A stretch of DNA of 64,000 nt from an uncultured Gammaproteobacteria bacterium. Its GTDB lineage: Bacteria; Patescibacteriota; Microgenomatia; PFEM01; JAPLYW01. The stretch lies in the NCBI GenBank assembly GCA_965230945.1, contig OZ246397.1:438284-502283 (forward strand), in the 5' to 3' direction. The position numbers and the translations under genes were made by a program. The notes under the pieces are model-generated. The model did no database searches. It was not told where the DNA came from and saw only the letters and a program-made list of their open reading frames with translations. Below, piece by piece: positions 20,142 through 64,000 of the stretch. Numbering within the stretch: position 1 is the first letter of the stretch; the number at the start of each line of letters is the position of its first letter.

Positions 20142-21206
20142 ATGTATTCTCCTAAGTTTACCATAAACAATGAAATCTTAGCTAATATTGGTCTAATTGA
20201 AGCCGCTCGAGAAGTTATTGAAAACGCTCCTTTGATTCCCGTTTATGAAGCACGTTTTGTCAAGGATGCTTTGATTAGAACGGTTCATCATGGGACTCAT
20301 CTGGAGGGTAATGATCTTTCTTTAAACGAAGTCAAAAAAGCTATTGAAGGAGAACAGGTGGTAGCTCGTGAGCGTGATATTCAGGAGGTAATCAATTACC
20401 GTAACGTTTTAAAATTTGTTGAAGAAGAAGATAAAAAAAGAGCTACTCATCGCCACTATACTGCTTCTATGCTTAAAAAGATTCATGAGTTAACTTGTCA
20501 TCGAATTCTAGGAGATTTTATAGGTGACTATCGTCAGACTCAGGTAGTAGTTAAAAACGGCTTTACCGGCGAAGTTACTTTTCGACCACCACCAGCGGTA
20601 GAGGTACCTTTTTTACTGGAAGATTTTTTTGAATGGCTTAATGGTTCTAAAATAGCTTCTATACATTCGGTTTTAAAAGCCGGTATTACTCATTATTACT
20701 TAGTGGCTGTTCATCCTTTTATTGAAGGTAATGGCCGTACAGCTCGGGCTTTTGCCACTTTGGTTTTGTTTTTTGAAGATTATGATATTAGGAAGTGTTT
20801 TTCTTTGGAAGAATATTTTGATAAGGATGCCACTTCTTACTATCAGGCTTTGGCTGATGTTTCTAATCAGTCTCAGGATATTAATCAGCGTGATCTGACC
20901 CCTTGGCTAACCTACTTTACACAAGCGATGGCGGTAGAACTAACGAGGATTAAAGAAAAGGTAAAGAAGCTTTCTACTGATTTAAAAATAAAAAATAAAA
21001 TAGGTGCTCAAATACCCTTAAACGAGCGTCAGATGAAGCTCATGGAGTATTTACAAGCTAATGGTTCCATTACTACCCCTGAAGCTAAGAAGATAGTTCC
21101 TAATTATTCAGATGATACCATCTTGCGCGACTTTAATTATTTTATTAAAAGAGGTATTCTTAAAAAAGAGGGGAAGACTAAGTCAGCAAGGTATATTTTA
21201 CGCTAA
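20142..21206 (+). CDS. Fic/Doc family protein with C-terminal winged-helix domain
   Basis: Canonical Fic motif HPFIEGNGRTAR. Confidence 0.8.
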   Translation: MYSPKFTINNEILANIGLIEAAREVIENAPLIPVYEARFVKDALIRTVHHGTHLEGNDLSLNEVKKAIEGEQVVARERDIQEVINYRNVLKFVEEEDKKRATHRHYTASMLKKIHELTCHRILGDFIGDYRQTQVVVKNGFTGEVTFRPPPAVEVPFLLEDFFEWLNGSKIASIHSVLKAGITHYYLVAVHPFIEGNGRTARAFATLVLFFEDYDIRKCFSLEEYFDKDATSYYQALADVSNQSQDINQRDLTPWLTYFTQAMAVELTRIKEKVKKLSTDLKIKNKIGAQIPLNERQMKLMEYLQANGSITTPEAKKIVPNYSDDTILRDFNYFIKRGILKKEGKTKSARYILR

Positions 21207-21221
21207 AAACCTTGGGGTATT

Positions 21222-21419
21222 TTGATGAAACCAGCAGAACCTCAGTTTCTGTATATGATTTTGATTCTGCCAACTTTATTTGGCTTGACTTTAGTTGGCG
21301 AGGGTTTAAATAAAATTTTGAAAGATGAAAAAACAGGTTGGACTTCGATTATTTTTGGCGTTTTATTTGTAGCTGTTGTCGTTTTTGCTTATTTATTCTT
21401 CTCTCAAAACCTAATTTAA
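21222..21419 (+). CDS. hypothetical small membrane protein (65 aa)
   Basis: ORF with two hydrophobic helices; may not be real. Confidence 0.25.
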   Translation: MMKPAEPQFLYMILILPTLFGLTLVGEGLNKILKDEKTGWTSIIFGVLFVAVVVFAYLFFSQNLI

Positions 21420-21421
21420 AA

Positions 21422-39076: not shown

Positions 39077-39104
39077 TTGACAATCAAGATGTAGTAGGAA
39101 TAAT

Positions 39105-39105
<1 letters not shown>
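39077..39105 (+). promoter_or_regulatory. Putative sigma70-type promoter for the 16S rRNA
   Basis: TTGACA (39077-39082), 16-nt spacer, AATAAT, ending at the mature 16S 5' end. Confidence 0.4.
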
Positions 39106-40559
<1,454 letters not shown>

Positions 40560-40694
40560 TGGAGAAAATTTTAAACACCCAAGGTTTCCAATTTTACTTG
40601 TAAAACTAAATTTGGGAATTCCTACTACATCTTGGTTGTTAAAAAAGACCCACTCTTAAGAGTGGGTCTTTCTATATCGAAGTATTTAAAAATA

Positions 40695-42872: not shown

Positions 42873-43009
42873 ATTCTTCTACTAAACTAGTTTTTATTAT
42901 AGCAGATTTTCTATTAATATGAATAGTTTTAACTTCTGTCCTATATCTTAGGTCAGGGTTAGTTTTATGCTGTTATTTTACCTAAATTTATGTTAAAATT
43001 TCCTTGCTT

Positions 43010-43081
43010 TGGGTGGTTGGCTCAGCGGTAGAGCGCTTCTCTGATAAAGAAGAGGTCATAGGTTCGACTCCTATACCACCC
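43010..43081 (+). tRNA. tRNA-Ile (anticodon GAU)
   Basis: Acceptor gggtggt/accaccc; D-arm gctc-agcggta-gagc; anticodon loop cUGAUaa; T-arm atagg-TTCGACT-cctat. Confidence 0.8.
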
Positions 43082-43090
43082 ACTTGTTTA

Positions 43091-43119
43091 TTGACAGTTA
43101 GTTTAGTTTTTGTTAAAAT
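43091..43119 (+). promoter_or_regulatory. Near-consensus sigma70-type promoter inside the rRNA spacer (TTGACA-17-TAAAAT)
   Basis: TTGACA at 43091-43096, 17-nt spacer, TAAAAT at 43114-43119. Confidence 0.4.
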
Positions 43120-43230
43120 TGTTAACAGTAGTCAAGCTACTAAATTTATGAGAAGTCGTCAAACTAGATATTTTTCTTTACGAGACCTATTTTGTGGTGG
43201 AACTTGATTGACTTTTTAGTAATTTTAGGA

Positions 43231-43253
43231 AGCTGGCTCGGCCAGCTTTTTTA
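43231..43253 (+). terminator. Hairpin + T-run (terminator-like) directly upstream of tRNA-Ala
   Basis: AGCTGGCtcgGCCAGCT followed by TTTTTT. Confidence 0.35.
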
Positions 43254-43259
43254 GTTTAA

Positions 43260-43332
43260 GGGCTCATAGCTCAGTTGGAAGAGCATCCGCCTTGCACGCG
43301 GAAGGCCAGGAGTTCGAATCTCCTTGAGTCCA
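43260..43332 (+). tRNA. tRNA-Ala (anticodon UGC)
   Basis: Acceptor gggctca/tgagtcc with G3:U70; anticodon loop cUUGCac; T-arm aggag-TTCGAAT-ctcct. Confidence 0.8.
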
Positions 43333-44467
43333 CTTGCTCTTTGAAAAGTGGATAGAAAATCCGTCAGACGAAAGAAAACGGCGAAAAGCTACTTTTATTA
43401 AAGCAAGCAATGGATGTCTTGGCTGTTTAAGCCGATGAAGGACGTTGCCGTCAACGATAGCGTCGGGGAGGTGACAAGCAACCTTTGATCCGGCGGTTTC
43501 CGAATGGGGTAACCCAGCGCCTAGCGTTACATCTTGTTTTTCAAGATGGGGGAACCATCCGAACTGAAACATCTAAGTAGGATGAGGAAAAGAGAACAAT
43601 TGTTATTCTGTTAGTAGCGGTGAGCGAAAACGGAACAGCCTAAACCTTCTTTAGGAAGGGGTTGCGGGGCAAAAAACATAGGATTTGTTGAGGATAGAGG
43701 AATACTCCGGAATGGGTAGCCAGAGAAAGTGAAAGCCTTGTACTCGAAATCCAAAACAACCTTATTTTGTTCCCAAGTACCACGGAACACGTGTAATTCT
43801 GTGGGAAGCTACCAGGGACCACCTGGTAAGGCTAAATACTTAAACAGACCGATAGTGAACCAGTACCGTGAGGGAAAGATGAAAAGTCCCTGTAATAGGG
43901 AGTGAAATAGAACCTGAAATTGTTTGCTAACAAGCAGTCAGAGTCTTAATTTTTAAGATGATGACGTGCCTATTGAAGAATGAACCGGTGAGTATTCGTC
44001 TAATTGTCAGTTTAAGCTATTTTGTAGCGAAGGCGCAGGGAAACCGAGTCTGAATAGGGCGTAGGTCTTTGACCAGCGATTAGACGGATGACCCGAAACC
44101 GGGCGAGCTAACCATGAGCAGGGTGAAGCTTATCGAAAGATGAGTGGAGGCCCGCACCAGTGTCTGGTTCAAAAGGCTTGGATGACTTGTGGTTAGGGGT
44201 AATATGCTAATCGAGCCCGGAGATAGCTGGTTCTCCTCGAAATATATTTAGGTATAGCGGTGTTGTGCGTTTTGGTGGGGTAGAGCACTGAATGATGGCA
44301 GGACAGCAATGTCTTGTCATCAATCAAACTCCGAATACGCCAAAAAACATACACTAGTCAGTCTTGCCGGGCTAAGCTGGTGAGGCAAAAGGGAAACAAC
44401 CCAGACTCTCATCTAAGGTCTCTAAATCTTACTTAAGTGTTTAAAGGAGGTGAAGTTCCTAAAACAC

Positions 44468-44523
<56 letters not shown>

Positions 44524-45310
44524 ACAAGGGATTTTGCGCCGCAAATTCAGGAGGCTAAAGTAAGTACCGAAGATGGAGCTGCGTTTAACTTCGGTTAAAC
44601 GTGGGGTAGAGGAGCGTCGATATGGCAGTGAAGCCATTTTGTAAGGAATGGTGGAGTAGTATCGAGTGAGAATGCCGGTATGAGTAGCAAAATTCCAGTG
44701 AGAATCTGGAACGCCGAATGTCCAAGGTTTCCCACGTAATGTTTGTCAGCGTGGGGTTAGTCGACCCTAACCCGAGGCCGATTGGCGTAGGGGATGGATA
44801 GCAGGTTTATATTCCTGCACCTTAATTATTTCGTTATTAACTAGGGAGGGACGGGATTTGATAGATAAGGTGTCTTATTGATTTGACATTTAAACAACGA
44901 ATCAGTTCTAATAGGCAAATCCGTTAGAGCGACGATGAGTTGAATGAAAAGGCCAAAGGCAACGGCGGCCAATCTTATTGCGTTAAGTCTCCAAGAAAAG
45001 CTTCGTGGTGAGGAATAATTAGGATCGTACCGTAAACCGAAACAGGTGGACTGGACGAGTAGTCTAAGGCGGACGGGAGAAGAGAGTTTAAGGAACTCGG
45101 CAAAACAACTGGACGTAACATTTGGAGATGTCCTACCCTGTTTATCAGGGTCGCAGCGAAAGATTGCTTACCGACTGTTTAACTAAAACACAGGTCTCTG
45201 CAAAGGCGAAAGCCAAAGTATAGGGGCTGAGGCCTGCCCAGTGCCGGAAGGTTAAGAGGACCTCCTTTATGGAGAGAATTGAAGCCCCGGTAAACGGCAG
45301 CAGTAACTAT

Positions 45311-45580
45311 GAATAGATTGTAGTTGTAAAAGTCGACTATATGCTGGAACATCCGTACCGTCGTTAAAGAACACGAACGGTTGCAGTATCTGACGCTACC
45401 ATATTTTTATATGGTGACAATGCGATCAGTGCGGACAATCAGCAGGAAAGGCTTAGGTTTTTCTAAGAATCCTCAGAGACTATACGTCGACCTCTTAAAA
45501 TAGAAATTAAGAGATGATATAGTCCGACCTCATGGGCGACCATGAGACTCCGTATTCAATCGGAGCTTAGTAACAAAGTG
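45311..45580 (+). ncRNA. ORF-less group I intron in 23S (helix 69-71 region, near E. coli position 1917-1923)
   Basis: Splits GTAACTAT / AACTGTTCTACGGTAGCG. R element CCTCAGAGACTATACG and S element AGATGATATAGTCCGAC are present. The 5' exon ends in U and the intron ends in G. Confidence 0.6.
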
Positions 45581-46160
45581 AACTGTTCTACGGTAGCGAA
45601 ACTCCTTGTCGTGTAAGTTACGACCCGCATGAAAGGCGTAACGAGTAAGCAACTGTCTTAAACTCTTTCCCGGCGAAATTGAAATGGCTGTGAAGATGCG
45701 GCCTAATTACTGCAGGACAAAAAGACCCCGTGAAGCTTTACTACAACTTGGCACTGAAAAATATACATGAATTGTTTAGAATAGGTGGGAGTCTTCGGAC
45801 GTCAGTGAAATACCACTCGTTTGTTTATGTTTTTCTTACCAAGATATGCTGGAAACGCATATTGGGACAGTGTCTGGTGGGTAGTTTGACTGGGGCAGTC
45901 GCTTGCTCAAGAGTAACGCAAGCGTACAAAGGTCAGCTTAGCACGTATGGAAATCGTGCTGGACGTATAAAGGCAGAAGCTGGCTTGACTGTGAGACTGA
46001 CAGGTCGAGCAGGAACGAAAGTTGGTCTTAGTGATCCTCGAATCCGAAGTGGTTTCGGATCGAGCTTAACGAATAAAAGCTACTCCGGGGATAACAGGTT
46101 AGTCGCGCCCGAGAGTTCATATCGACGGCGCGGTTCGATACCTCGATGTCGGCTCAGCGT

Positions 46161-46192
<32 letters not shown>

Positions 46193-46299
46193 TCTGTTCG
46201 CCCATTAAAACGCTACGTGAGCTGGGTTCAGAACGTCGTAAGACAGTTCGGTCTCTATCCGCAGTAATCGTTGGATATTTGAGGGAATCTGACCACAGT

Positions 46300-47055
46300 A
46301 GGAAATGCTGCCTTGGTGAGTAATTACCAAGGTCACTCTTGCTAAAATTGGTGAAATCCTCTAAAATGATATCGTTGGTCCTTTTGATTTAGAGGACCAC
46401 ACCAAGGGAAGGTTAGAATTTTTCTCTATGACAGATCAAGAAAAAGCATATATAGCAGGATTTTTAGACGGGGATGGAAGTATTATGCTTCAATTAAAGC
46501 CTAGAAAATTAGTAAGTTATGGCTTTAGAGTAAAAACAACGCTTTGTTTCTACCAAGATACACGTCATAAAAAGGGTTTATCTTGGATTAGGGGTAAATT
46601 AGGTATAGGATATCTTTCTCAAAGGAAAGATAGGATTACCGAATTAAGAATTGAAGGTTATAAAGCTGTTAAATCAGTTTTGAATGAATTAGCCCCCTTT
46701 ATTATCTTTAAAAAGAAACAAGTCAAAATTATTCTAAAGGCAATTTTAATAATGGAAAATAACCCTAATCCTAAGGAATTTCTGAAAGTTTGTAAACTTT
46801 CAGATGATATTTCTGCTATTAATTATGCAACTGTACGAAAAAAATATAATTATGTTTTCGTACGTAAGAAGTTTATAGAGAAAGGTTTGATACCCCCTTA
46901 ACGACTGATCCTGATTCACTTTTGTGAAGAAGGAGAGATAGGAGTTACTTCTACTTTATTAGTAGAAAATCTATGGCTCTTATAATAAGGCAAGCCCCCA
47001 GTTTTTTCTGGGGTGAAGGTATAGTCTAACCCTTTAGTAATAAGGGAATAAGTTG
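46300..47055 (+). mobile_element. Intron (probably group I) in the 23S sarcin-ricin loop region, carrying a LAGLIDADG homing endonuclease gene
   Basis: Splits ...CACAGU / ACGAGAGGACC. The intron ends in G. An S-like element AGGTATAGTCTAA lies near the 3' end. Confidence 0.65.
46428..46901 (+). CDS. LAGLIDADG homing endonuclease (intron-encoded)
   Basis: YIAGFLDGDGS is a LAGLIDADG motif; 157 aa single-motif form; entirely inside the 23S intron. Confidence 0.8.
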   Translation: MTDQEKAYIAGFLDGDGSIMLQLKPRKLVSYGFRVKTTLCFYQDTRHKKGLSWIRGKLGIGYLSQRKDRITELRIEGYKAVKSVLNELAPFIIFKKKQVKIILKAILIMENNPNPKEFLKVCKLSDDISAINYATVRKKYNYVFVRKKFIEKGLIPP

Positions 47056-47363
47056 ACGAGAGGACCTGGTTGGAGGAATCCCTGGTGTGCCAGTTGTTCC
47101 TATCAAGGGCAACGCTGGGTAGCTACATTCCTTAAGGATAACCGCTGAAGGCATCTTAAGCGGGAAGCCTCACCCAAGATTAGATATCCTTTCTCCTTCG
47201 GGAGATGAAGATCGGTTGTAGACTACAACCTTTATAGACTGGAAGTGTAAGTAGAGTAATCTATTTAGCTAACCAGAACTAATGATCGAAGAAAGTAACT
47301 TTTTTGCCTTTTCTTTTGCCTAACGGTGATCTATCCACTTTTCAAGGAGCAAATTTGAAAATT

Positions 47364-47486
47364 TGCCTTGGTGATTTGAGCGTCGTCGAACTACTCTTTC
47401 CCATTCCGAACAGGATCGTAAAAGGCGACAGCGGGGACGATAGTTAACTCGCAAGGGTTTGCGAAAATACCTCATTGCCAGGGCAT
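47364..47486 (+). rRNA. rrf: 5S ribosomal RNA
   Basis: TTGCCTTGGTG...CCCATTCCGAACAGG...ATTGCCAGGGCAT matches the 5S termini and loop C. Confidence 0.7.
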
Positions 47487-53049: not shown

Positions 53050-53122
53050 GGGCCCATGGCGAAGTTGGTATCGCGTCTCGATGGCATCGAGAAGACCGCC
53101 GGTTCGAGTCCGGCTGGGTCCA
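53050..53122 (+). tRNA. tRNA-Ala (anticodon GGC)
   Basis: Acceptor gggccca/tgggtcc with G3:U70; D-arm gcga-agttggta-tcgc; anticodon loop aUGGCau; T-arm gccgg-TTCGAGT-ccggc. Confidence 0.75.
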
Positions 53123-53132
53123 CAAAAATTAA

Positions 53133-53204
53133 GGGGCTATAGCTTAGTTGGTAGAGCACGGCATTCGCATTGCCAAGACGTCGGTTCGATTCCGACTAGC
53201 TCCA
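53133..53204 (+). tRNA. tRNA-Ala (anticodon CGC)
   Basis: Acceptor ggggcta/tagctcc with G3:U70; anticodon loop uUCGCau; T-arm gtcgg-TTCGATT-ccgac. Confidence 0.7.
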
Positions 53205-53250: not shown

Positions 53251-55272
53251 TTATTCTTCTAGTTCAGCTTCGGGAGTAGCTTCCTCAATAATTTCGATTT
53301 CACCAGCATCAGTAGATTCGCTTACCTCGGGACCAGATTGTTCCGGTAATTCAATGGGTGGGGAAATAATAGGAGATGGAAGAACTTCCGGTTCAGTAAG
53401 TTGAGTTGTACCTTCAGTAGTTTCTGTTATTTCTTCTTCAGGAAGATTTTTAGCTAGTTCTTCAAGTTCTGTTCTTGCTTTTTGATAATCAACTGAATCG
53501 GTAGGAATTAAATTAGTGACGATGAGCATCATCTCATGGGCCTTTTTAAAATCTTCCTTTTCTTTGTAGGCAGCAGAGAGATTATAATAGCCATTGGCAA
53601 AGTTGGCTTTATCGTCAATAGACTTTTGAAACCATAAAATAGCCTCATCATATTCACCTAGAGCATAATAAACACCACCTAGTCCTAATTTTAATTCAGG
53701 GTTGGTGGGGTCTAAATTAATTGTTTGACGGTAGGATGTTAGCGTCCATTGTTCAGCCCCTTCAGCAAAATTGATTAATTGACGGTAGGTTTGAGATAGA
53801 TTTTCCCAATTGATCACTTTGTTTTGGTTTAAAGAAACGGCTACTTTAGCTTCACTAATTGATTGCTGGATTAAGGTGGTAATAGTTTGTCGGTCCTGAT
53901 CAGAAAGATCTGGCCGACCGGCAATACTGTCTGCTAAGGCAAGACTGGTTTGAGAGTAGGAGATGCGGTAAACATCATTATAAGGATTTAACATAATAGC
54001 TTTAAGCTGGTTATTATAGGCGTTAGTTCCATCATTTAAGGCGATATTAACCAGCGATTGTCTAAAACGAACTTCGGCAGCATAGACTCTACCGGCAAAG
54101 TAAAAAGAAACTCCGCTAAAAAGGACAATTAAAGAGAGGATAATCACAGGTAGTATTTTTGATCTTTCTACATATTGCCCTTTTGGTAAACCGATTGCAG
54201 CTGAAGCAACCAAGATATAGAAGATTAAAAGAGTAAGAAAATTGACTGGTAGAAAGAGGAAGATCAAAGAAACGGTAAAGATAGTCAAAAAGTAAGCAGA
54301 ATATTTTTTGGCCTTAATAATTTTACCCATTAACCAAACCCAGGCTGCAAAACCCAAAATACCCACGGTGGTTATAAGATTAAAATAGAAATTTCCTGAG
54401 GTACCAAAACGAAATAGCCAAAGATTAGTTAAATTATAGCTAGCTGGTCGGAATCGAGAAAAAGCGTCTAGAAAGTTTTCCGGTCCAACACCTAAAAGGA
54501 AAGTTTTACCATTTTTAAAAGCTTCAATCACGATTGCCCATGAGGTTGAATACGGTAAAAGAAGAGGTTTGCTAACAACTAAAATTTGCCATAAAGAAAT
54601 ACCTAGACCACCAAGGATGATTATGATAGAGATGGGGTGGTGGATTAGAGAGAGCAAACTTTCTCTTTTAACTTTCTTAATAATAGAAATAAAACGGGTT
54701 AAAGCTAAGATTAAGACAGCAATTAGAAAAGTGGTTAAAACCAATGGGGTTCCGGCTGGCGTCCAAGATTTTAATCTAAGGAAAGCAACACGGCTGCCTT
54801 CAGGAATAAAAGCTTCACCCAAACCAATAAATTGAAAGATGGCGGTTAAAGAAAGAACAACAGCACCAACAATGAAACTGTTTAAAAGCTTAATTCTATT
54901 TTCCCTACTAACGTTGTTGGTAATTATAAAATAGAGAAAGGTGAGGGTAATTACTGTTCCTGTTCCGTTAGGCAACCAAAGAGTTTCCCATTTATTAGGA
55001 GAAACGATAATTGTTGAAAGAATGAAAGCAACGGCAATAGCCAAAATAGGTAAATCAAAGGAAGTTTTTTTAATACTTAATTCTTTAGTAACAACCATTT
55101 TAACAGCCCACAGAATTAATAGGATAAAGACAGAGGAGAAAAGAAGAGCATTTTTATTAAACTCGTAGAACTCTGAAGTGAAAGGCAAGAAAAATAGTGG
55201 CGTTACTCCAATAAAAATGATTAAAAACCAAAGAATGATTTTATTAATAAATAGACTTCTTTTTTCTGCCAT
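53251..55272 (-). CDS. Polytopic membrane protein, O-antigen ligase (Wzy_C)-like, with C-terminal TPR repeats and acidic tail
   Basis: About 12 TM segments over 400 aa, then TPR-like repeats (LGGVYYALGEYDEAILWFQKSI...). The C-terminal 80 aa are Glu/Thr/Pro-rich. Confidence 0.45.
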   Translation of the reverse strand: MAEKRSLFINKIILWFLIIFIGVTPLFFLPFTSEFYEFNKNALLFSSVFILLILWAVKMVVTKELSIKKTSFDLPILAIAVAFILSTIIVSPNKWETLWLPNGTGTVITLTFLYFIITNNVSRENRIKLLNSFIVGAVVLSLTAIFQFIGLGEAFIPEGSRVAFLRLKSWTPAGTPLVLTTFLIAVLILALTRFISIIKKVKRESLLSLIHHPISIIIILGGLGISLWQILVVSKPLLLPYSTSWAIVIEAFKNGKTFLLGVGPENFLDAFSRFRPASYNLTNLWLFRFGTSGNFYFNLITTVGILGFAAWVWLMGKIIKAKKYSAYFLTIFTVSLIFLFLPVNFLTLLIFYILVASAAIGLPKGQYVERSKILPVIILSLIVLFSGVSFYFAGRVYAAEVRFRQSLVNIALNDGTNAYNNQLKAIMLNPYNDVYRISYSQTSLALADSIAGRPDLSDQDRQTITTLIQQSISEAKVAVSLNQNKVINWENLSQTYRQLINFAEGAEQWTLTSYRQTINLDPTNPELKLGLGGVYYALGEYDEAILWFQKSIDDKANFANGYYNLSAAYKEKEDFKKAHEMMLIVTNLIPTDSVDYQKARTELEELAKNLPEEEITETTEGTTQLTEPEVLPSPIISPPIELPEQSGPEVSESTDAGEIEIIEEATPEAELEE

Positions 55273-55378
55273 AAGTTAATAATAAGGCTTAAAAAACATA
55301 CCTGTCAACTGCTATTTTTTGATTTAATTTTGATATACAAGTTTATATTAAGATATATTCTTCTAAGCAAATAAGGAT

Positions 55379-58300
55379 CTATTTAATTGTTACTCCTGAA
55401 ACACTTACTCCGCTGAAATTAATGTTGCCTTGACTGTAATCTACTGTTAGTGTACCACACCATTCAGAATTCCCGTTGTCACTGTTGGCCCTAATTCGGT
55501 ATTGGTAGGTATATTCAGAGGAGGTGGTATTATCAGTAGAGGAAGTGCTATCAGCGTCTTCAGTGGTTAAAAGAGTATAAGCTCCACCATCGACACTTCT
55601 TTCCACCCGATAACCAGTCTCCAGACTGGTATTATCATTCCATTTGACGATTGTTTGGTTAGGTTGACTGCCGTCATCAATCATGCAGCCCGTAGGAGCG
55701 TAAATTTGACTCATGGTAAAGTAAGCAGACTCTGTACTCCAGGCCCCCTCTTCACCTCCGTCATCCCAATATTTAATACGCCAATAATACGTAGCCCCCC
55801 ATTGTAGATCGGTGCTTGCTCCTCCATAGGAAATATCGGTACAGCGATCACCAGCTGTGCAAGTGGGAGAGAGGGAAGTTTTGTCAGAATCCCAAAGTGT
55901 AGAGCCAAAAGCTGAATCATCATCAACCTGAATTTGATAATAATCAGCAATATCGCCAGTATCGGTATCATTATAAATTGCCGAAAATTCAGGGGTGGTA
56001 TCAGTTACCCCTGTGGGGTTAGTTTGCCCTTCGGTTAATAAAGAAGTGGGGGCCAAGGGGGTATAGTTGACGGAAAAAGTATTGGTTCCTGTACTCCAGG
56101 GGCTTTCCGCACAATCATCATCAAAAAATTTAATTCGCCAATAGTAAGTAATTCCGCCGGTTAAAGCTGATCCTGCATAAGAAATATCAGCACAGCGAGT
56201 TCCTTGATTGCAATTCGTCATCGAAGTTCCTGAAGCCCCTGAATCCCAAATCGGTGAACCAAATTCAGAATCGTCATCTACTTGAATGCGATATTTATTG
56301 GCAATATCATCGCTATCAGGATCATTATAAATAGCCGAAAATTCTGGTTCAGTGTCGGGAACTTGACTGGGATTGGTTTGCCCTTCAGTTAGCAAAGAAG
56401 TAGGAGCGGTTGGGGTTTGGTTCTCGGTGTAATTTAAAGTGACACTCGTGAGAGAGGGAGAAACGGTGGTATCGTTAGTTGTTAAAATAGCTCGATATTG
56501 GAAGTATCTTTGAGGAGTAGAGGAAATGGTGGAGCCAGTTGGGTCTGTCATATAGGTAGAATTAGATCTAAAGTCGTCCAAATACATATCAAAACCTTCT
56601 GAACCATCAAGAACTCTAATGCCTAGTTTGGTAATCTCATCTCTGTCATCAGTAGAAATATCAGTAATATCCCAATACTCTCTTTGCCACTTAAAGACAT
56701 CAGCATTGGTTGAATAACCAGAAGAAGGAGCGGTACCGCTCCAAGAAGAAACAGTTACCAAACCTGAAGAAATAGAAGTTACTTCACCTTGCATAATATA
56801 AGTGGTACCATCAACATTTTCTCGAATGATAACTGTATCGCCGGTATATAAACCAGTTACACTGTCAGGTGTAAATTCATAATTAGAGGTTGAGGTTGGA
56901 CCATCTGAACCTGCGGTAGTAGCATAATCAACCGAAATCTGGTGAGTTCGTAACCCATATTGATAAGCCTGTCTGATTTCATCAGCCGAACGGGTAGTAG
57001 TGTTGGAAATGCGGACTTCGTCGATGGTGCCCTTAAATTGACTGGCACCAATGGTTAGGGGGTTATCGTTTGTTGCAATTGTGACGGATCTTGAAGCGGT
57101 GTTTTTTAGTTCACCATTTACATATATGGAAAGGGTTGTACCGTTGTATGTCCCCGCTACATGATACCATTCTCCAATATTTGGTGTTACATTACTATTT
57201 ACTCGTGGTTCGTAAGAACTGCCGTCATAAATAAAAAATTCGAAATCGTCACCACCTCCACTAGAAATTCTGATAAAATATGATCCCAAACTAGTTCCTT
57301 TACTGATAAGGTATTCATAAGTAGAATGGCTACTTATTTTAACCCATAATTCAATAGATAAATTTCCAGTGATATCTAGACTTGCCGAATCTGGTACGTT
57401 TATATAGTCACTATCACTAGCAAAACTCCTCGCCTTGCCGATTTTTCCTTGAGTAAAGGTTGTCCCGGTTGGGGTTCCATGGTTACCATTACTAGAAGAA
57501 TCTTTAATATAAGCTCCAGAGCCGGATTTTTCATCCAGATGCCACAGGCTGACGGTGCTAGCATCGCTTCCATAAACCGAATGATCAGTTTCACCGACAT
57601 ATGTTTCAAGATATGTCCCTGGTCTATTTGCCGCTACATAAAAAGGAGCTTTGTTTTTAGAAGATAAGTCAGTTGAAGTTAGAGTTCTGGAAAGACGATG
57701 GTCTTTTCCTGCTCGATAAGCTTCAGCAATTTCTTCGGCGGTGCGAGCGACATTGGAAATACGGACTTCGTCAACTTGACCATCGTGGTATCCATAGGAT
57801 CCACCCCCAATTTGATAAGGGGCATAAACGGTCGTCTTTGGTGAGGTGAGTCCAGTCCTGACAAGAGTTCCATTAAGATATATGGAAGGAGTTTTGTTAT
57901 TATAAACAATTGCTAAATAATTCCACCCAGATGGAACAGTTCCGTTATAGACTGCCAAGGGGGGCATATAAGCACTTCCATGTTCATATACAGAGATACC
58001 ATTAGTGCCAACAGATACGCCAGCTCCACTGTTAGTACCTTCATTAACGGCTCCAAATAAATATTTTTGGCCTGAGATTCCAGTAGTTGAGGTTGTACTT
58101 TCTGCATCAATTTCGTGAGTGCTATTGGCTGTAAACCATGCAGAAAAAGTAAAGGTATTCGTGGGTCGATTTGTTGTTCCAACAGTAATGATATCACTAC
58201 TTCCATTAAAGCTCCTAGCTTTTCCATAGAATCCATCTACTACTGTTGTTCCAGTTGGCGTGCCATGGTTGACGTTGGCAGTGGCATCTTTAATATAAGC

Positions 58301-61300
58301 TCCAGTGCCTGAAGTTTCCTCCATATGCCAAAGAGCAACGGTATTACCATCTACTTGCGGGGCTCCGACAGTGGATTTTAAAGAGCCATTACCCTCCATT
58401 TTAATGGTTGATTCGTCGGTTTTAGTAAGAGTGTTGGAGTTTGATGTAGACCAATTAGTAGCGTCTGAATCCATGCTTAAAATAGTAGTTTCGTTGCTTA
58501 TTGGTTTCCATTCTTCCCAAGTAGAATTATTGGCTGAAGTTCTGGTTTGAAATTCAATATCCGCCCCTAAGCCAGCCGTTGGTTCAGGAGAGGTATATTT
58601 GCGGACTATAATCCTATCCCAATCAGTAGTGTAACTTTGACCGTTATAAGAATCACTATCGTATCTTCTTCCTAATGCAATTGGTTCACTAGACACAGTA
58701 TTAGTTAAATCACCAACATTCCAATAAGTTGAATTCAAATCTAAATTATACATATTTAAATTAACCGTAGAAGAATCTTTTACCTTTATAGTGTAAAGCA
58801 TATTATTAGCTGGCGTTTCGTCATCTTTATTCATCCAGCTTGAGTCATTTCTATAGTAAGCATTACCTGGGTGATTTAACCATCCTATACTATTACTTGA
58901 AGATAGATAAAATCCCCCTATCATCTGACCATTAGTTGCTAAACTGGTTGACTTTGCTTTAATCTCCTGAATAATGCCTGAAGAAAAGGTGGATATAGAA
59001 GTTAATCTACCGGTTGTATTTGTGCCGTGCAGATAGCCGCCGGAAACACTAAAACCAGTACCATCTGTTATAGTCCATTTAGTGGTGTCAATAGAATCTC
59101 CCAAGAAATCATCAAAAAACTCAAAAGTTGCACCACCATCTGAACCCGCACTAGCCCCTGAATTTCCATACCACATAAAAATCGTTGTTTTACTTGAAGC
59201 AGTGATAGAGTCTACTTCCACCCAAACTTCTGCTTCCACGCCGTCTGATTTTTCTTCTATCCAATAATCAAGATTGGTTCCGGCAGAGTTGGTGAACTTC
59301 AAATCATCAAAATCACTTTGCATATTAGAGTTATAGGGAACAGTCAATTTTACTTGGTAATTAGTTAAGGTGTTTGAATTTTGAGAATTATCAATAATTA
59401 CTGGCTTGACTTTGGTCCAGCCATCTGGAGTTGAAGGGGGAGTAATTGATTCTGTCCATTGGAGAGAATCAAGACTAGCCACAGATGTTCCTAAATCAAT
59501 TGATTGGGAAGTATAAACACCATAAGGTCTTTTTTGAGCATCTAATTTGATTTCTTCAGGAGTTCGAGCGGTGTTGGAAATACGGACCTCATCGATGGTG
59601 CCATTGAAAAAGTAACTTCCACTCCCATGTGCACCTATAATTGATGTTCCCGCAGGATTAGTTATTAAAGTTTGAGAATACGACTTAGATGCAGCTAAGG
59701 TACCATTTACATAAACTGCCTTTGTACTACCGTTATATGTACAAGCAACATGATTCCATTGATTATTCTTAAAATAGCTGCTAGTAGTAAAACTAAGATT
59801 ATCGCTATTAGAAGATGTATTATATGTGCGGAAATAAAAAGTATCTGTCGCTGCAAAAAAACAGGAATACTGAGTATTTACAGAGCCGTTTGTTGTTTTT
59901 TCAAATATAAACATATTTCTATTAAAATTATCTGAATAAACCCAGGCTTCTATTGAAAGATTCTGTAAATCAAAAGAGGAAGATGCTGGCAATAGAATAT
60001 AATCACTGCTCCCATTAAAACTTCTTCCGGCTGCTCCTAATTTTTGAGTGGTAGTAGTGATGGTGGTGCCAGTGGCTGTGCCGTGATTGCCATTGCCGGA
60101 AGAATCACAAGCATCCTGTCCTTCAGAGCAGCTGTCATTAACTGTTTCATTCATATGCCAAAGGCCAACGGTATGAAGATCAGCTGGTGATTCTTGTTCG
60201 TAAAGTTCAATCGAAGGACCAGTGTCAATTGTGGGATATCTAACAATTACTATACCAGAGCCACCATCGCCACCTTTAGTACCAGGATTACCGCCGCCAT
60301 TACCACCGCCGCCGCCGCCAGTATTAGCAACGCCATTAGTATCTGCTGAGTTTCCGTATCTATATCCATCACCGCCACCACCTTGTCCGCCAGTTCCAAG
60401 TGTGCCTGGAGGACCAGTAAAAGCTGAACCACCACCGCCACCCGCAAACCAGCCAGAAACCCCTACGGATGTCCCGAAATAACTTGACATGTCAACACCT
60501 ACGCCACCATCACCACCAGCTCCTTTAGCAGCATTAGCACCAACAGCACCTGCACCACCACCACCACCAGCAGCAAATAGCCGCCAGTCTGTATCGGTGA
60601 TACCATTACCACCATTATATCCCTGTCTTGGGGGTCCAGCATTTCCAGCGCCACCAGTTCTGGTACCCGCATTACCAGCACCACCACCTGAACCGCCAGC
60701 ACCACCATCGCCATAACTACCAGCACCACCGCCCTCTGCGGTTATATTATCAAAGACAGAGTTATCACCTTTAGTACCAGCTGCATCATCACCACCACCA
60801 CCACCAGCCCCAACGGTTACGGTTAGTTCACTGCCTCGTGTTACGTCATGGTCTGTTTCGTATAAAAGTCCACCAGCACCACCGCCACCGCCAGTATTAT
60901 TTGTGTGATGTCCACCGCCACCGCCACCAGCGACAATTAATACATCTACTTTTAAAGGAATATTTGTCGTAAATGTTCCATCACTTGTAAAGGTATGAAT
61001 GGTATAGCCTTCGGAATAGGTAATTGTTCCTCCTGTTACAAAATTACCAACATCTTTAACTCGATTTAGCTGGCCGCTGGTAAAGTCAGATTGCTCATCA
61101 TGGACAATTGTTGGATCAATAATAACAGGGTAAAGAGCAGTTTTTAGCCAGTTAACATCAGGATTAAAATGAGCATAGTATTGAATAGGTTGTGACTTTT
61201 GACTGAGAGTAGAGGAGGAGGTAATAGTTAAAGGAATATTATTACTTCTATTGTTTCCAGCGTCAATCATGAATGGTTTTTCGAAGTGGAAGCGATATTC

Positions 61301-61846
61301 TCCACTAGTTGGGTCGATAAAGGTAGATGTAATTTTGCCTTGAAGATCTTTTTTAGGGACAACTTTGTTTAAATTTAAAGCAAAAGTTAAAACTTTATCT
61401 AGGTTTTGGACGCTTTCAGGTGAGTTTAATTTAATTTCTTCCTTTACTCCTTTTTCAATGAGGGTATAAATTAAATCAATTCCTGGATAAACGTTTTTAT
61501 AAATCACAGTTTTTTCATCTTTCTTTTCAAATTTGATTTTGTCGTTTGAAACGTTATTGGCTAAAGAGAATTCAATAGAAGAACCAGAGGTAGAAAACTT
61601 AATCTTAGTTGATTTTTCATCAAGACGGTTGCCTAGATATATCTTGAAATCTTTTGAATTGTTTTGATATATATAATTGGTTACCCTAGGAGCATCTTGA
61701 AGGATAATGTTATCCGCTTTTTTGTTGCTATTTTTTACGGCTAGGATAGAGATAAGAGTGGTTACAAAAATAGCTATTGCAAATAAAATTAGCTTTTTGT
61801 TTTTCTGGATAATTTTTTTGGTGATTAAGATTTTACTTTTTCTCAT
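55379..61846 (-). CDS. Giant secreted/surface protein (2155 aa) with three LamG/concanavalin-A-like repeats, a Gly-rich block and two FN3-like C-terminal repeats
   Basis: N-terminal signal anchor. Motif LWHM(N/E)E...G.GNHGT.TGTT...G.A(R/G)SFNGS.DYI occurs three times. GGGGxAGG... low-complexity block spans about 230 aa. The module PTAPTSLLTEGQTNP...YYWRIK occurs twice. Confidence 0.7.
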   Translation of the reverse strand: MRKSKILITKKIIQKNKKLILFAIAIFVTTLISILAVKNSNKKADNIILQDAPRVTNYIYQNNSKDFKIYLGNRLDEKSTKIKFSTSGSSIEFSLANNVSNDKIKFEKKDEKTVIYKNVYPGIDLIYTLIEKGVKEEIKLNSPESVQNLDKVLTFALNLNKVVPKKDLQGKITSTFIDPTSGEYRFHFEKPFMIDAGNNRSNNIPLTITSSSTLSQKSQPIQYYAHFNPDVNWLKTALYPVIIDPTIVHDEQSDFTSGQLNRVKDVGNFVTGGTITYSEGYTIHTFTSDGTFTTNIPLKVDVLIVAGGGGGGHHTNNTGGGGGAGGLLYETDHDVTRGSELTVTVGAGGGGGDDAAGTKGDNSVFDNITAEGGGAGSYGDGGAGGSGGGAGNAGTRTGGAGNAGPPRQGYNGGNGITDTDWRLFAAGGGGGAGAVGANAAKGAGGDGGVGVDMSSYFGTSVGVSGWFAGGGGGSAFTGPPGTLGTGGQGGGGDGYRYGNSADTNGVANTGGGGGGNGGGNPGTKGGDGGSGIVIVRYPTIDTGPSIELYEQESPADLHTVGLWHMNETVNDSCSEGQDACDSSGNGNHGTATGTTITTTTQKLGAAGRSFNGSSDYILLPASSSFDLQNLSIEAWVYSDNFNRNMFIFEKTTNGSVNTQYSCFFAATDTFYFRTYNTSSNSDNLSFTTSSYFKNNQWNHVACTYNGSTKAVYVNGTLAASKSYSQTLITNPAGTSIIGAHGSGSYFFNGTIDEVRISNTARTPEEIKLDAQKRPYGVYTSQSIDLGTSVASLDSLQWTESITPPSTPDGWTKVKPVIIDNSQNSNTLTNYQVKLTVPYNSNMQSDFDDLKFTNSAGTNLDYWIEEKSDGVEAEVWVEVDSITASSKTTIFMWYGNSGASAGSDGGATFEFFDDFLGDSIDTTKWTITDGTGFSVSGGYLHGTNTTGRLTSISTFSSGIIQEIKAKSTSLATNGQMIGGFYLSSSNSIGWLNHPGNAYYRNDSSWMNKDDETPANNMLYTIKVKDSSTVNLNMYNLDLNSTYWNVGDLTNTVSSEPIALGRRYDSDSYNGQSYTTDWDRIIVRKYTSPEPTAGLGADIEFQTRTSANNSTWEEWKPISNETTILSMDSDATNWSTSNSNTLTKTDESTIKMEGNGSLKSTVGAPQVDGNTVALWHMEETSGTGAYIKDATANVNHGTPTGTTVVDGFYGKARSFNGSSDIITVGTTNRPTNTFTFSAWFTANSTHEIDAESTTSTTGISGQKYLFGAVNEGTNSGAGVSVGTNGISVYEHGSAYMPPLAVYNGTVPSGWNYLAIVYNNKTPSIYLNGTLVRTGLTSPKTTVYAPYQIGGGSYGYHDGQVDEVRISNVARTAEEIAEAYRAGKDHRLSRTLTSTDLSSKNKAPFYVAANRPGTYLETYVGETDHSVYGSDASTVSLWHLDEKSGSGAYIKDSSSNGNHGTPTGTTFTQGKIGKARSFASDSDYINVPDSASLDITGNLSIELWVKISSHSTYEYLISKGTSLGSYFIRISSGGGDDFEFFIYDGSSYEPRVNSNVTPNIGEWYHVAGTYNGTTLSIYVNGELKNTASRSVTIATNDNPLTIGASQFKGTIDEVRISNTTTRSADEIRQAYQYGLRTHQISVDYATTAGSDGPTSTSNYEFTPDSVTGLYTGDTVIIRENVDGTTYIMQGEVTSISSGLVTVSSWSGTAPSSGYSTNADVFKWQREYWDITDISTDDRDEITKLGIRVLDGSEGFDMYLDDFRSNSTYMTDPTGSTISSTPQRYFQYRAILTTNDTTVSPSLTSVTLNYTENQTPTAPTSLLTEGQTNPSQVPDTEPEFSAIYNDPDSDDIANKYRIQVDDDSEFGSPIWDSGASGTSMTNCNQGTRCADISYAGSALTGGITYYWRIKFFDDDCAESPWSTGTNTFSVNYTPLAPTSLLTEGQTNPTGVTDTTPEFSAIYNDTDTGDIADYYQIQVDDDSAFGSTLWDSDKTSLSPTCTAGDRCTDISYGGASTDLQWGATYYWRIKYWDDGGEEGAWSTESAYFTMSQIYAPTGCMIDDGSQPNQTIVKWNDNTSLETGYRVERSVDGGAYTLLTTEDADSTSSTDNTTSSEYTYQYRIRANSDNGNSEWCGTLTVDYSQGNINFSGVSVSGVTIK

Positions 61847-61848
61847 CT

Positions 61849-64000
61849 TTAATTAATAATCCACCAGTTAAACTTGATTTCCTGATTAATAGCCATATCA
61901 ATGGCTACCTTAAACCAACCGTCTTTATTGACACATTCAGATTTATTTTCTTCACAAATAATGTTAGCTTGTTTAGATTTAACAAAAAGGACTTTATTAG
62001 CAGTATCTGAAATAGGGGTAATATATATTAGACTTTGATCGGTAATTTTAGGATTGTAAATCATAATTTCTTCTTCATTAGTAGGGAGAATACCCATTCC
62101 AGAGGTAGCGTTGGTTTTTATCGCTGGAAGATAATTACCTGTCTCATCCCAATTATCATAGGCAGCAATAAGAGCGCCTGATTGAGTGGCTGAGTAATCA
62201 GCTTCAATGTCTAAAGAGCTAAAGTAGGCACTTCCTGAGGCATCAATGGAAGCAACTGTCTTACCGTCAAATCCTTTTACTAAGAGTTTGCCAAAAGCAG
62301 ATTCACTGGCTTCTGATGGCAATTCGATACCTGATTCACTGGCTACAGGAATTGTGGCTAGATCAATGACAAGGTCTTGGTTTTCAAGAGGCCTGATGGT
62401 ATTAGCAAAAAGACTGCCTTCAACGGTAACATCTTCACCAAAGACAACATTACCGCTTTGATCAATAATGATTTTGCCGGCTAAGATATCAATACCGCCT
62501 AGGCCTAGATTTTGTATATATAAAGGACCATAGAGAGTATTAATTGAATTATCAGCGATTGAGAGAGTACCGCCAATATTTAATGAACCGGTGGTATTAA
62601 CATCAGATAGGGTAGTGGTTCCTAAGACCATGAGATCATTTTCGAAGACATAGCCATTGGTTGGAATTTCGATGTCTTCATCGAATTCTTCATTTTCAGT
62701 ATCAATAGGAGTATTTAGTATTTCCGCAATTAAAGCTTCAATATCGTCTATTTCATCGAAGATATTGGCGCTTTCAGTAGCCATTGAGTCAGCGGAATCA
62801 GAAGCTTCATTTTGATAGATATTGGTGATGTTTTGAGTGATATAGGTGGCGGAAATACTGCTGGCGATTAGATCACCAAAGGTTCCATGTTTAGTTATAA
62901 TTTCTTCAGCATATAAAGTACCAGCGATACTAGCATCTTCTCCAACTGATAAACTTTCAGTAGTAAGTTCACCACTAAAACTGGCGTTTCCTTCTGAATC
63001 TATAGAGACAACTTCTTGTCCTTCCTTGCCTTTTATAATTAACCTGCCAAAGCTGGAGCCACTAGCTTCTTGATCATCAGTTAAAGTTTGTTGAAGATTA
63101 ATCACTATGTCTTGATCAGCTAGGGGAGTAAGTTCTGATAGACTTAATCTTTCGGTTTCAATTTCTTTGCTTTTAATAATAGGGCTGATTAATTCTTCTG
63201 TTTCGATCCGGCCGGCGCGAAGATTGGCGATAACTGCTTCAGAGAAAATACCAATTCTTTGGATAATTTCTCCTAGGCTATCTTTAAGATTATATTTGGC
63301 ATTAAGTTCTGCTTCTTCTTCATTTTCAGCTAGTTCTTCTCCAGTAATAGATAGTTCACCTGTTGAAGTTAGATAAATCTCCGGATCATACCAGCCGACA
63401 TTAACAAAAAGAGTAATTTTCCCGACATTATTAGGATCAGGATTATTGTAGGGTTCTAAGGCCTTTCCTACAATCGGTCCGGCTTTGATGGCTTTCATGG
63501 CCACTCCGGGAATATTTGAAGAAGTTAAATAATCTCCTACTTCAATTGGACCATTTTTTGTTGAGACTTTAACAGGGACCTGACCAATAAGAGCAACGAT
63601 TACATTAGATTTTTCATAACTTTCATCACAGCTTTGATCTTCCACCTGACACAAAGGTCCTCCACCCAAGAAGCCAGGAGAAGTCGATACCACACCGATT
63701 GGATTATCAGATTGTTTTTCGGTTTTTCTAACCGCTCTTGCTTTTTGATTATCAAAAGTTACCAACTCTCCCACTTCAGGAACTTGGTTTAGATTAGCAA
63801 TCAAGAAATATTCGGCAAGGTCAGTCCCGGTAGTAGTATAAGCTACAGCACTAGCTCCTCCCTGAATCTTACCAGCAACTGTGCCTGCTCCATCAGAAAA
63901 ACCAATAAAATAGTTTCCGGTGGTCCGGCTGGCATTGGCTACACCCAAACTAATCAACAAGGCATCGGCGCTAGTTGCCGTATCAGTATTATAAATTCGA
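61849..64000 (-). CDS. Second giant surface protein (at least 717 aa in window; N-terminus beyond window end) with internal repeats
   Basis: Minus-strand frame is open to the window edge. Shows repeated modules (SFGRLIIKGKEGQEVVSIDSEGNASFSG / AFGKLLVKGFDGKTVASIDASGSAYFSS) and an acidic linker. Sits 2 nt upstream of, and co-directional with, the 2155-aa gene. Confidence 0.6.
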   Translation of the reverse strand, partial: RIYNTDTATSADALLISLGVANASRTTGNYFIGFSDGAGTVAGKIQGGASAVAYTTTGTDLAEYFLIANLNQVPEVGELVTFDNQKARAVRKTEKQSDNPIGVVSTSPGFLGGGPLCQVEDQSCDESYEKSNVIVALIGQVPVKVSTKNGPIEVGDYLTSSNIPGVAMKAIKAGPIVGKALEPYNNPDPNNVGKITLFVNVGWYDPEIYLTSTGELSITGEELAENEEEAELNAKYNLKDSLGEIIQRIGIFSEAVIANLRAGRIETEELISPIIKSKEIETERLSLSELTPLADQDIVINLQQTLTDDQEASGSSFGRLIIKGKEGQEVVSIDSEGNASFSGELTTESLSVGEDASIAGTLYAEEIITKHGTFGDLIASSISATYITQNITNIYQNEASDSADSMATESANIFDEIDDIEALIAEILNTPIDTENEEFDEDIEIPTNGYVFENDLMVLGTTTLSDVNTTGSLNIGGTLSIADNSINTLYGPLYIQNLGLGGIDILAGKIIIDQSGNVVFGEDVTVEGSLFANTIRPLENQDLVIDLATIPVASESGIELPSEASESAFGKLLVKGFDGKTVASIDASGSAYFSSLDIEADYSATQSGALIAAYDNWDETGNYLPAIKTNATSGMGILPTNEEEIMIYNPKITDQSLIYITPISDTANKVLFVKSKQANIICEENKSECVNKDGWFKVAIDMAINQEIKFNWWIIN

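Follow-up and report, generated by a model that had tools for sequence, protein, structure and literature searches.

Organisation of the locus

The stretch of DNA analysed here, referred to as the window, comprises 64,000 nucleotides of contig OZ246397.1 (positions 438,284 to 502,283 of the forward strand) and carries a locus encoding two giant proteins with modules related to those of phage fibres, followed by a membrane protein with tetratricopeptide repeats (TPR). Three open reading frames (ORFs), all intact, lie on the minus strand in this region: 53251-55272 (673 aa, the TPR protein), 55379-61846 (2155 aa, giant 2), and a frame running from 61849 to the window end, open up to base 63999 without a stop, which represents the C-terminal part of giant 1. 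The complete giant 1, found on a 97-kb source contig of the Joint Genome Institute (JGI), has 2687 aa (L001:1935-9998), and the two giants total 4842 aa. An earlier reading of the sequence letters alone, called the original prediction below, placed both giant ORFs correctly and understated their combined length as more than 2850 aa.

An exact-protein look-up recovered giant 2, identical in sequence, on the 97-kb JGI contig, which is metagenomic, and on one from Logan; an NCBI record of the same protein places it on a contig of up to 615 kb. Because they are identical in independent assemblies, the long ORFs are real and intact, and a frameshifted pseudogene or an assembly artefact is ruled out for giant 2. 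The two giant genes form an operon, as originally proposed, with a spacer of 2 nt between the giant 1 stop and the giant 2 ATG (TAA-AG-ATG). The features of the locus, with the evidence on which each is based, are as follows.

61849-64000, minus strand: C-terminal 716 aa of giant 1 (residues 1972-2687); open frame to the window end, the remainder of the gene lying outside the window
63355-63999, minus strand: predicted intramolecular-chaperone and auto-cleavage module of phi29 gp12 type (Peptidase_G2) in giant 1; Pfam and profile match to gp12
61852-63354, minus strand: C-terminal region of giant 1 that extends about 500 aa past the chaperone module; no match in Pfam or the PDB
55379-61846, minus strand: giant 2, 2155 aa, with one N-terminal transmembrane helix; ORF, Pfam and hydropathy
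61736-61792, minus strand: predicted transmembrane or signal-anchor helix of giant 2, aa 19-37; hydropathy scan
60989-61699, minus strand: N-terminal domain of giant 2, aa ~50-286, without a Pfam family; 31-43% identity in syntenic orthologs
60236-60988, minus strand: Gly_rich_2 domain, aa 287-537, equal to the GC-rich block; Pfam PF21722, AlphaFold2 (AF2) and Foldseek
59546-60016, minus strand: LamG/ConA-like module 1, aa 611-767; Laminin_G_3, E 1.2e-32
59069-59314, minus strand: DUF2341, aa 845-926; E 1e-25, 90 bits
58277-59059, minus strand: region after DUF2341, aa 930-1190; no Pfam match
57725-58207, minus strand: LamG module 2, aa ~1214-1374; Laminin_G_3, E 4.2e-16
56975-57415, minus strand: LamG module 3, aa ~1478-1624; Laminin_G_3, E 3.2e-32
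55724-56404, minus strand: two Ig_Rha78A_N modules, aa 1815-1919 and 1933-2041; E 1.8e-10 and 1e-14
55460-55696, minus strand: weak fn3-like C-terminal module, aa 2051-2129; fn3, E 5.4e-4, 20.6 bits
55279-55308, minus strand: candidate sigma-70-like promoter TTGACA-18-TATTAT, 11/12, directly upstream of the TPR gene; consensus match only
53251-55272, minus strand: TPR protein, 673 aa, about 11 predicted transmembrane helices, TPR repeats and a tail; Pfam, AF2 and homologs

A phage-type chaperone module in giant 1

Across the whole of giant 1, Pfam finds a match to the SAM-like N-terminal domain of integrases (aa 3-50) and a CBM96 module (aa 1548-1705), and nothing else. Besides a single transmembrane helix at aa 80-98, the protein contains five 'GNVGIGTTxP' motifs, distributed between aa 782 and 1946; these parts, like the SAM-like match and CBM96, lie outside the window. 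The part visible in the window begins with a module of about 205 residues, in which aa 2009-2086 match Peptidase_G2 (PF11962, the intramolecular-chaperone (IMC) autoproteolytic cleavage domain) at E 4.6e-6, the score of 26.6 bits comparing with a cut-off of 25. Peptidase_S74, the family originally suggested for this protein, gave no match (PF13884, E <= 10 on the window fragment), and the module is of the G2 type instead.

This module shares up to 60% identity with at least 90 proteins of the Candidate Phyla Radiation (CPR), which differ in their N-terminal parts (beta-helix, collagen, H-lectin, LVIVD and VgrG-type). Precomputed PF11962 matches exist for several of these proteins, and 'peptidase G2 autoproteolytic cleavage domain-containing protein' is the name given to one. 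Two residues of the fragment, Asp60 and Glu63, which correspond to D2031 and E2034 of giant 1 and lie inside a 'DLAE' motif, do not vary among 25 aligned CPR homologs and are conserved to at least 90% in 91 sequences. The conserved Asp and Glu were reportedly shown to be catalytic in gp12 by Xiang et al. in 2009.

A profile built from the 25-protein alignment matches the pre-neck appendage protein gp12 of phage phi29 (6qz9_A, residues 654-743, E 7e-6) as well as its crystallised 163-residue C-terminal fragment (3gqh_A, E 1e-4). The first residues of the latter, 'DFAEYF', align exactly on 'DLAEYF' of giant 1. Since 3gqh_A starts at this Asp and the mature phi29 protein, gp12*, ends at residue 691 (PMC6542822), the aligned Asp is the first residue after the phi29 cleavage site. 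By this alignment, giant 1 would probably be cleaved between Thr2030 (63825-63823) and Asp2031 (63822-63820), in the context ...TTTGT|DLAEYF....

Relatives of the module are also frequent in viral sequences, as 128 of them, with the same DLAE motif, were found on IMG/VR viral contigs. In the 54 viral ORFs examined, the module is the last part of the protein, a median of 13 residues following the match. A tblastn search against GenBank phages gave only three marginal matches, all to jumbo phages. Because it contains a predicted auto-cleaving chaperone module with invariant Asp and Glu, giant 1 is probably a trimeric fibre.

The C-terminal extension that follows the module is the best-conserved part among giant 1 orthologs. 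It holds two repeated modules of about 55 aa (62218-62397 and 62974-63132), which are 42% identical (E 2e-13) in a direct pairwise comparison and were missed by self-BLAST. The repeated modules originally noticed in the upstream protein were thus recovered.

Integrase-SAM-like domains at the 5' end of the locus

The SAM-like N-terminus of giant 1 (L001:1935-2324) would lie in the cytoplasm, ahead of the transmembrane helix. A 160-aa protein with two SAM-like matches is encoded upstream of giant 1 (L001:1315-1797). The matches in the two proteins are to PF02899 and PF13102, and Pfam detects no recombinase catalytic domain in either of them.

Similar SAM-like sequences open the giant-1-like ORFs of four other loci (L009, L043, L072 and L004), followed in L009 by a hydrophobic stretch, and in L053 (581-9610) the 160-aa-type protein and the giant are fused as one ORF of 3010 aa. 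A search of 1.84 billion representative proteins with residues 1-130 of giant 1 returned 64 matches, at least 12 of them in proteins of 1390-2821 aa and most of these matched at or near the N-terminus. Additionally, one protein of 2027 aa (P0376) has 14 SAM-like stretches.

Modules and anchoring of giant 2

Giant 2 contains several carbohydrate-associated families. Laminin_G_3 (PF13385) matches the whole protein with E 5.7e-71 and 238 bits against a gathering score of 27.6, and the motif LWHM.E...GNHGT.TGTT...SFNGSSDY is visible in the translation of each of the three copies, in agreement with the threefold LamG arrangement first described. The DUF2341 segment, originally put forward as a possibility, is likewise well supported (PF10102, E 8e-24 on the whole protein, 84-90 bits against a gathering score of 23.4). 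Ig_Rha78A_N (PF25788) reaches 85 bits in total, with 41 and 55 bits for the two copies against a gathering score of 27.4. In other words, the C-terminal modules described as duplicated and FN3-like are indeed duplicated, as Ig_Rha78A_N modules, but a true fn3 match (PF00041, aa 2051-2129) stays under the gathering score of 25, so the resemblance is FN3-like only.

For the N-terminal domain of giant 2, neither Pfam nor the PDB yields a match. The Gly-rich and LamG parts are matched by PHROG families, one of them a family of virion structural proteins. The haloarchaeal fimbrial subunit TafC (NF052521) was considered and rejected, with 104 bits against an NCBIfam cut-off of 410 and a match that spans the LamG region only.

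Both giants are rich in Ser and Thr (20-23%), and the sole transmembrane helix of each is N-terminal. Neither contains the sortase motif LPx[TSA]G, so that a check for LPXTG-type anchoring was negative. All six frames of the window, and the giants themselves, lack a class III (pilin-type) signal. Pfam detected no catalytic domain (glycoside hydrolase, lyase or protease) in the 4842 aa of the two proteins.

The glycine-rich block and its predicted fold

The Gly-rich block of giant 2 had been recognised as an island of GC-rich DNA, and this observation holds: its GC content is 0.52-0.54, compared with 0.38 for the whole window. At the codon level, GC1 and GC2 each reach 0.664, and the third-position value (GC3) is 0.228, compared with 0.27-0.31 in the rest of the giant 2 gene and 0.27-0.35 in other genes. 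Gly accounts for 94 of the 259 residues of the block (~36%), and GGT, the preferred Gly codon of the genome, dominates. The rise in GC is explained by codon positions 1 and 2, that is, by the Gly and Ala content of the protein. A foreign, recently acquired GC-rich insert, as originally suspected, is rejected on the native or lower GC3 and on codon usage.

The block contains GGGGxGG-type motifs and matches Gly_rich_2 with 95-101 bits against a gathering score of 24.3, covering profile positions 1-225 of 226. Members of the family carry it as a discrete unit of about 270 aa, in 1-6 full copies. Among syntenic giant 2 orthologs, the copy number is 0 (L046), 1 (L080 and L003), 2 (L004) or about 4 (L005), and the position varies. 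The proposal of a recombination hotspot is therefore borne out only in the sense of domain shuffling between homologous loci.

An AF2 model, computed from an alignment of 24 such modules, predicts a beta-sandwich with glycine-rich loops at high confidence (predicted local distance difference test score, pLDDT, 91.7; predicted template modelling score, pTM, 0.90). A Foldseek search of the PDB with this model placed a fibre protein of cyanophage Pam3 first (7ypx_A, E 2e-5, probability 1.0, TM-score 0.45-0.51), followed by two tail-tip chains of mycobacteriophage Bxb1 and, more weakly, by the glycine-rich domains of ALK and LTK (E 7e-3 and above). Among the predicted viral structures of BFVD, 246 matches were found at E <= 1e-3, with TM-scores up to 0.86 and about 40% identity. 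These are 'glycine-rich domain-containing' viral proteins of cyanophages, a pelagiphage, a haloarchaeal virus and prasinoviruses, some of which combine the domain with ConA-like, FN3 or collagen modules. A tblastn search against GenBank phages found nothing, probably owing to low-complexity masking. The Gly-rich domain is thus confidently modelled as a phage-fibre/ALK-like fold of receptor-binding type.

The membrane protein with TPR repeats

The AF2 model of the 673-aa protein (pLDDT 86.7) contains about 11 transmembrane helices, one fewer than the 12 first counted, followed by TPR helical repeats at aa ~400-610 and a disordered acidic and Pro-rich tail. The repeats, already noted in the original prediction, are also recognised by sequence profiles, among them TPR_11 (41.9 bits against a gathering score of 26.8); Pfam reports TPR families only, even at E <= 10. 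Most of the invariant residues (W245, K253, G261, G263, F271, N280 and W285) fall in a 60-residue loop, aa 234-294. Because basic residues occupy alternate short loops between the AF2 helices (positive-inside rule), the N-terminus would be inside, and the large loop and the TPR domain would lie outside the membrane.

The family includes 203 homologs at E <= 1e-5, and those among the matches listed are 33-72% identical; the best match in a representative genome is 72% identical. Homologs occur in genomes of the Microgenomates lineages Shapiro-, Ames-, Woese-, Gottesman-, Collier-, Roizman-, Chisholm- and Beckwithbacteria. When the membrane domains of homologs 37-45% identical to the protein are isolated, they match Wzy_C (PF04932) with 38.5 and 32.9 bits against a threshold of 31.7, over almost the entire profile (positions 9-149). 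Wzy_C was matched by 20 of 30 chosen homologs, a set whose selection was biased towards flagged members. These matches support membership, via homologs, in a distant family of the Wzy_C superfamily.

No terminator-like site was found before the TPR gene. The near-consensus sigma-70-type promoter just upstream suggests that the gene is transcribed separately from the giant genes. Its membership in the giant operon, as originally proposed, is doubtful because of this promoter-like site and because it is a core gene that has giant neighbours in only 21 of the 57 representative genomes surveyed. On the other side of the gene, two tRNA genes on the plus strand (53050-53204) are convergent with it and lie 47 nt past its 3' end.

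Synteny and distribution

Three loci with homologs of giant 2 (L003, L004 and L005) show the same gene order as the window: a giant with a SAM-like N-terminus, a Gly_rich_2/LamG giant and the TPR membrane protein, and then the M23/LysM and Rho genes on the other strand. More generally, several Microgenomates lineages share the arrangement of the 160-aa SAM-like protein, giant 1, optionally giant 2, and the TPR gene. In L003 (17354-19113) and L004 (18260-20029), three pilin- or pseudopilin-like genes (N_methyl, T2SSG) lie on the opposite strand between the giant 2 ortholog and the TPR gene. No such genes occupy this position in the window or in L005.

The neighbourhood of the TPR gene was surveyed in the 57 representative genomes in which its upstream sequence extends for at least 2.5 kb. 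A giant-1-like gene lies on the same strand within 9 kb upstream in 18 of them, abutting the TPR gene in several (e.g., L013, L044 and L072). A giant-2-like gene lies upstream in four genomes, one of which has both giants. Giant 1 is thus more persistent as a neighbour of the TPR gene, with giant 2 as an optional insertion. The TPR gene itself is a core Microgenomates gene, loosely linked to the giants.

Homologs of the giant proteins number 915 at E <= 1e-10, and the 120 listed have 1186-3609 aa. Those among them whose source is named are mostly from Patescibacteria, and some are called 'LamG' or 'DUF2341 domain-containing' proteins. Together with the TPR homologs in genomes titled as Microgenomates lineages, this agrees with the CPR origin first suggested. 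Many third party annotation records of metagenome-assembled genomes with a Microgenomates-type TPR gene (L006-L085) are titled 'uncultured Gammaproteobacteria', 'Pseudomonadales', 'Micrarchaeota' or 'Bathyarchaeia', which look like placeholder or wrong labels.

A possible role at the cell surface

With moderate confidence, the region is interpreted as a chromosomal Microgenomates locus for two tightly coupled giant surface proteins made of phage-fibre-type modules, which most likely bind glycans on another cell or polymeric substrates. In this arrangement, giant 1 would start with a small cytoplasmic SAM-like domain and one transmembrane helix, and about 1,400 aa of fibre-like sequence with the CBM96 carbohydrate-binding module would be outside the cell. 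The chaperone module would drive trimerisation and cut itself at Thr2030|Asp2031. The product would be a long membrane-anchored trimeric fibre with a carbohydrate-binding region at its distal end. Giant 2, held by its single N-terminal helix, would keep the Gly-rich receptor-binding-type domain, three LamG modules, DUF2341 and Ig/FN3 spacers on display, forming a variable multi-lectin array beside the tail-spike-like giant 1. The TPR protein resembles a conserved envelope enzyme whose probable substrate would be a lipid-linked glycan, used to ligate or polymerise an envelope polymer or for the O-glycosylation of surface proteins; any link to the giants would be loose.

The original description of giant, probably extracellular, adhesin-like proteins fits the lectin domain content, the phage receptor-binding-type folds and published speculation. 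Adhesion has been hypothesised for large Patescibacteria proteins (PMC11809585), and similar speculation covers ConA-like and DUF2341 giants of this phylum (PMC11809585; bioRxiv 10.1101/2025.02.25.640227) as well as large DUF2341 proteins of archaeal pilus loci (PMC4858521). Attachment to a host cell would be one form of such binding. A more specific idea, given a low probability, is a conserved Microgenomates 'cellular tail fibre', in which giant 1 would fold, trimerise and cleave itself like a tail spike and would work with giant 2 to recognise a partner cell. The SAM-like parts could then couple the fibre to a cytoplasmic partner or to DNA, which would allow contact-dependent signalling.

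Several results weigh against the main interpretation. The Peptidase_G2 match is marginal and appears only when a 221-aa segment is scanned, as the full-length scan (E <= 0.1) lacks it. The chaperone module of giant 1 is internal, with about 500 conserved residues after it, and not C-terminal as in phages; cleavage would release a large fragment of giant 1, or it may not occur. N-terminal anchoring would put the Gly-rich domain of giant 2 close to the membrane and not at the tip as in phage fibres. Moreover, 36 of the 57 surveyed genomes have no giant gene next to the TPR gene, and in the 17 of these that were inspected, the upstream genes are mostly of ordinary size and on the other strand. 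As for the TPR protein, first described as Wzy_C-like, homologs pass the Pfam threshold, the window protein itself gives no Wzy_C match (E <= 1-10), and its membrane-domain profile matches nothing in the PDB.

Other functions for the same proteins have to be weighed. The giants might serve in substrate capture or degradation, holding polysaccharides or cell-wall debris at the surface for feeding, a possibility that is given a low probability. CBM96, LamG, Ig_Rha78A_N and DUF2341 are all carbohydrate-associated modules, and for ConA-like proteins of CPR phages an association with glycoside hydrolases has been suggested as well (bioRxiv 10.1101/2025.02.25.640227). Nevertheless, the two proteins lack any detected catalytic domain, and the phage-type receptor-binding modules point to recognition of a cell surface.

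It is unlikely that giant 2 serves a type IV pilus system as an accessory adhesin, in spite of precedents for its domain type. Large DUF2341 proteins in archaeal type IV pilus loci have been proposed as tip adhesins (PMC4858521), DUF2341 is annotated as a type IV pilus-like component (PMC11809585), and the three N_methyl pilin-like genes of L003 and L004 stand between giant 2 and the TPR gene. These genes are absent at the locus here and in L005, however; giant 2 has no class III signal, no pilin-type motif occurs in the window, and there are no pilus-machinery genes among ten other window ORFs scanned with Pfam.

A structural envelope coat, such as an S-layer-like sheath glycosylated or anchored by the Wzy_C/TPR protein, is judged quite unlikely. 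Wzy_C-type O-oligosaccharyltransferases glycosylate S-layer proteins and pilins in other bacteria. The giants are very large, Ser/Thr-rich and membrane-anchored, and the adjacent gene of the Wzy_C superfamily encodes a TPR domain predicted to lie outside the membrane. On the other hand, domain content, copy number and the very presence of the giants vary strongly between close relatives, unlike a core structural coat, and the TPR gene has its own promoter-like site and no giant neighbours in the 36 genomes mentioned above.

Finally, it is very improbable that the locus consists of tail-fibre or tail-spike genes of a prophage or phage remnant, as might be thought from the IMC 'DLAE' module, the Gly-rich domain and LamG, all typical of phage fibres, and from the integrase-type SAM-like domains at its 5' end; this origin is rejected on gene context and synteny, for the flanks hold no other phage genes (the neighbours being Rho, the M23 peptidase, RadA, S1 and the rRNA operon) and the arrangement is syntenic in chromosomes of several Microgenomates lineages, and moreover both giants have N-terminal transmembrane anchors, the SAM-like domains come without a recombinase catalytic domain, and GC3 is native.

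Relation to known systems

The closest parallel for the chaperone module of giant 1 is gp12 of phi29, with which it shares homology, the D-x-x-E motif and the alignment of its Asp with residue 1 of the released fragment. It differs in being internal to a 2687-aa protein anchored in a cell membrane, whereas the module is C-terminal in phi29 and in the 54 viral ORFs. For the Gly-rich domain, the parallel is gp24 of Pam3, in which TNF-like together with glycine-rich domains form the receptor-recognising part, likened to gp38 of phage S16 and to ALK (PMC9608196). The predicted Gly_rich_2 fold matches 7ypx_A and, less strongly, ALK/LTK; unlike in gp24, however, the domain lies near the N-terminus of a 2155-aa multi-lectin protein and not at a fibre tip, and no dedicated chaperone gene like gp25 was seen.

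The giant LamG/DUF2341 'adhesin-like' proteins of Patescibacteria belong to the same phylum and size class and use the same domain vocabulary, but those highlighted in PMC11809585 are FhaB-type and exceed 4000 aa. The present pair adds the G2 chaperone module, the fold assignment of the Gly-rich block and the putative cytoplasmic SAM-like N-terminus. A nanohaloarchaeal study is said to have described giant LamG-containing surface proteins in DPANN archaea; these belong to another domain of life, and no homology was detected beyond the LamG modules.

The TPR protein resembles members of the Wzy_C superfamily (WaaL, Wzy and PglL/PilO) in being polytopic with a large predicted extracytoplasmic loop, and differs from them in having about 11 instead of 12 transmembrane helices and a predicted extracytoplasmic C-terminal TPR domain. 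CPR bacteria are not known to have lipopolysaccharide, so the protein cannot be a literal O-antigen ligase.

Giant lectin-rich proteins of CPR bacteria have already been proposed as adhesins, and adhesion is the standard guess for them; in this respect, the locus adds detail and not a concept. Under-described aspects are the phi29-type chaperone module, which is internal and has a cleavage site that can be predicted precisely, the phage-fibre/ALK-like fold predicted for the Gly-rich block, and the SAM-like N-terminus that would be cytoplasmic. Little is known about how ultrasmall CPR bacteria find and hold partner cells beyond the type IV pili of Saccharibacteria, and the locus offers concrete parts: the predicted site T2030|D2031, the modelled Gly-rich domain, and three LamG modules with CBM96. 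The sharing of modules between cellular giants and the host-recognition fibres of phages helps to explain rapid domain turnover. It also calls for caution, as domain content alone is insufficient to call such genes 'viral' or 'auxiliary metabolic genes'.

Other features of the window

The rest of the window is ordinary chromosome, with an rRNA operon, tRNAs, FtsH, RecF, Fpg, DNA ligase, Rho, RadA and an M23/LysM peptidase; the S1 gene is also among the neighbours of the locus. The rRNA operon (39103-47483) is interrupted, as a gene for a protein of 725 aa (40695-42872, minus strand) lies between the 16S gene and the tRNAs with the 23S gene. This protein matches TrwB_AAD_bind, DUF87 and TraG-D_C, in the manner of a coupling-protein-like ATPase. 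In the syntenic loci L003 and L004, a similar gene, for about 714 aa and with DUF8128, DUF87 and TrwB matches, adjoins the Rho end.

Group I introns are matched twice on the plus strand. The match at 12674-12874 (87 bits) is intergenic and sits upstream of the gene for a class I (Trp/Tyr) tRNA synthetase, and that at 45301-45546 (63 bits) falls within the 23S rRNA gene. Additionally, a gene with a Fic/DOC domain (20142-21206, plus strand) adjoins the gene of an ATP-dependent DNA ligase of archaeal/eukaryotic type (21338-23140, plus strand).

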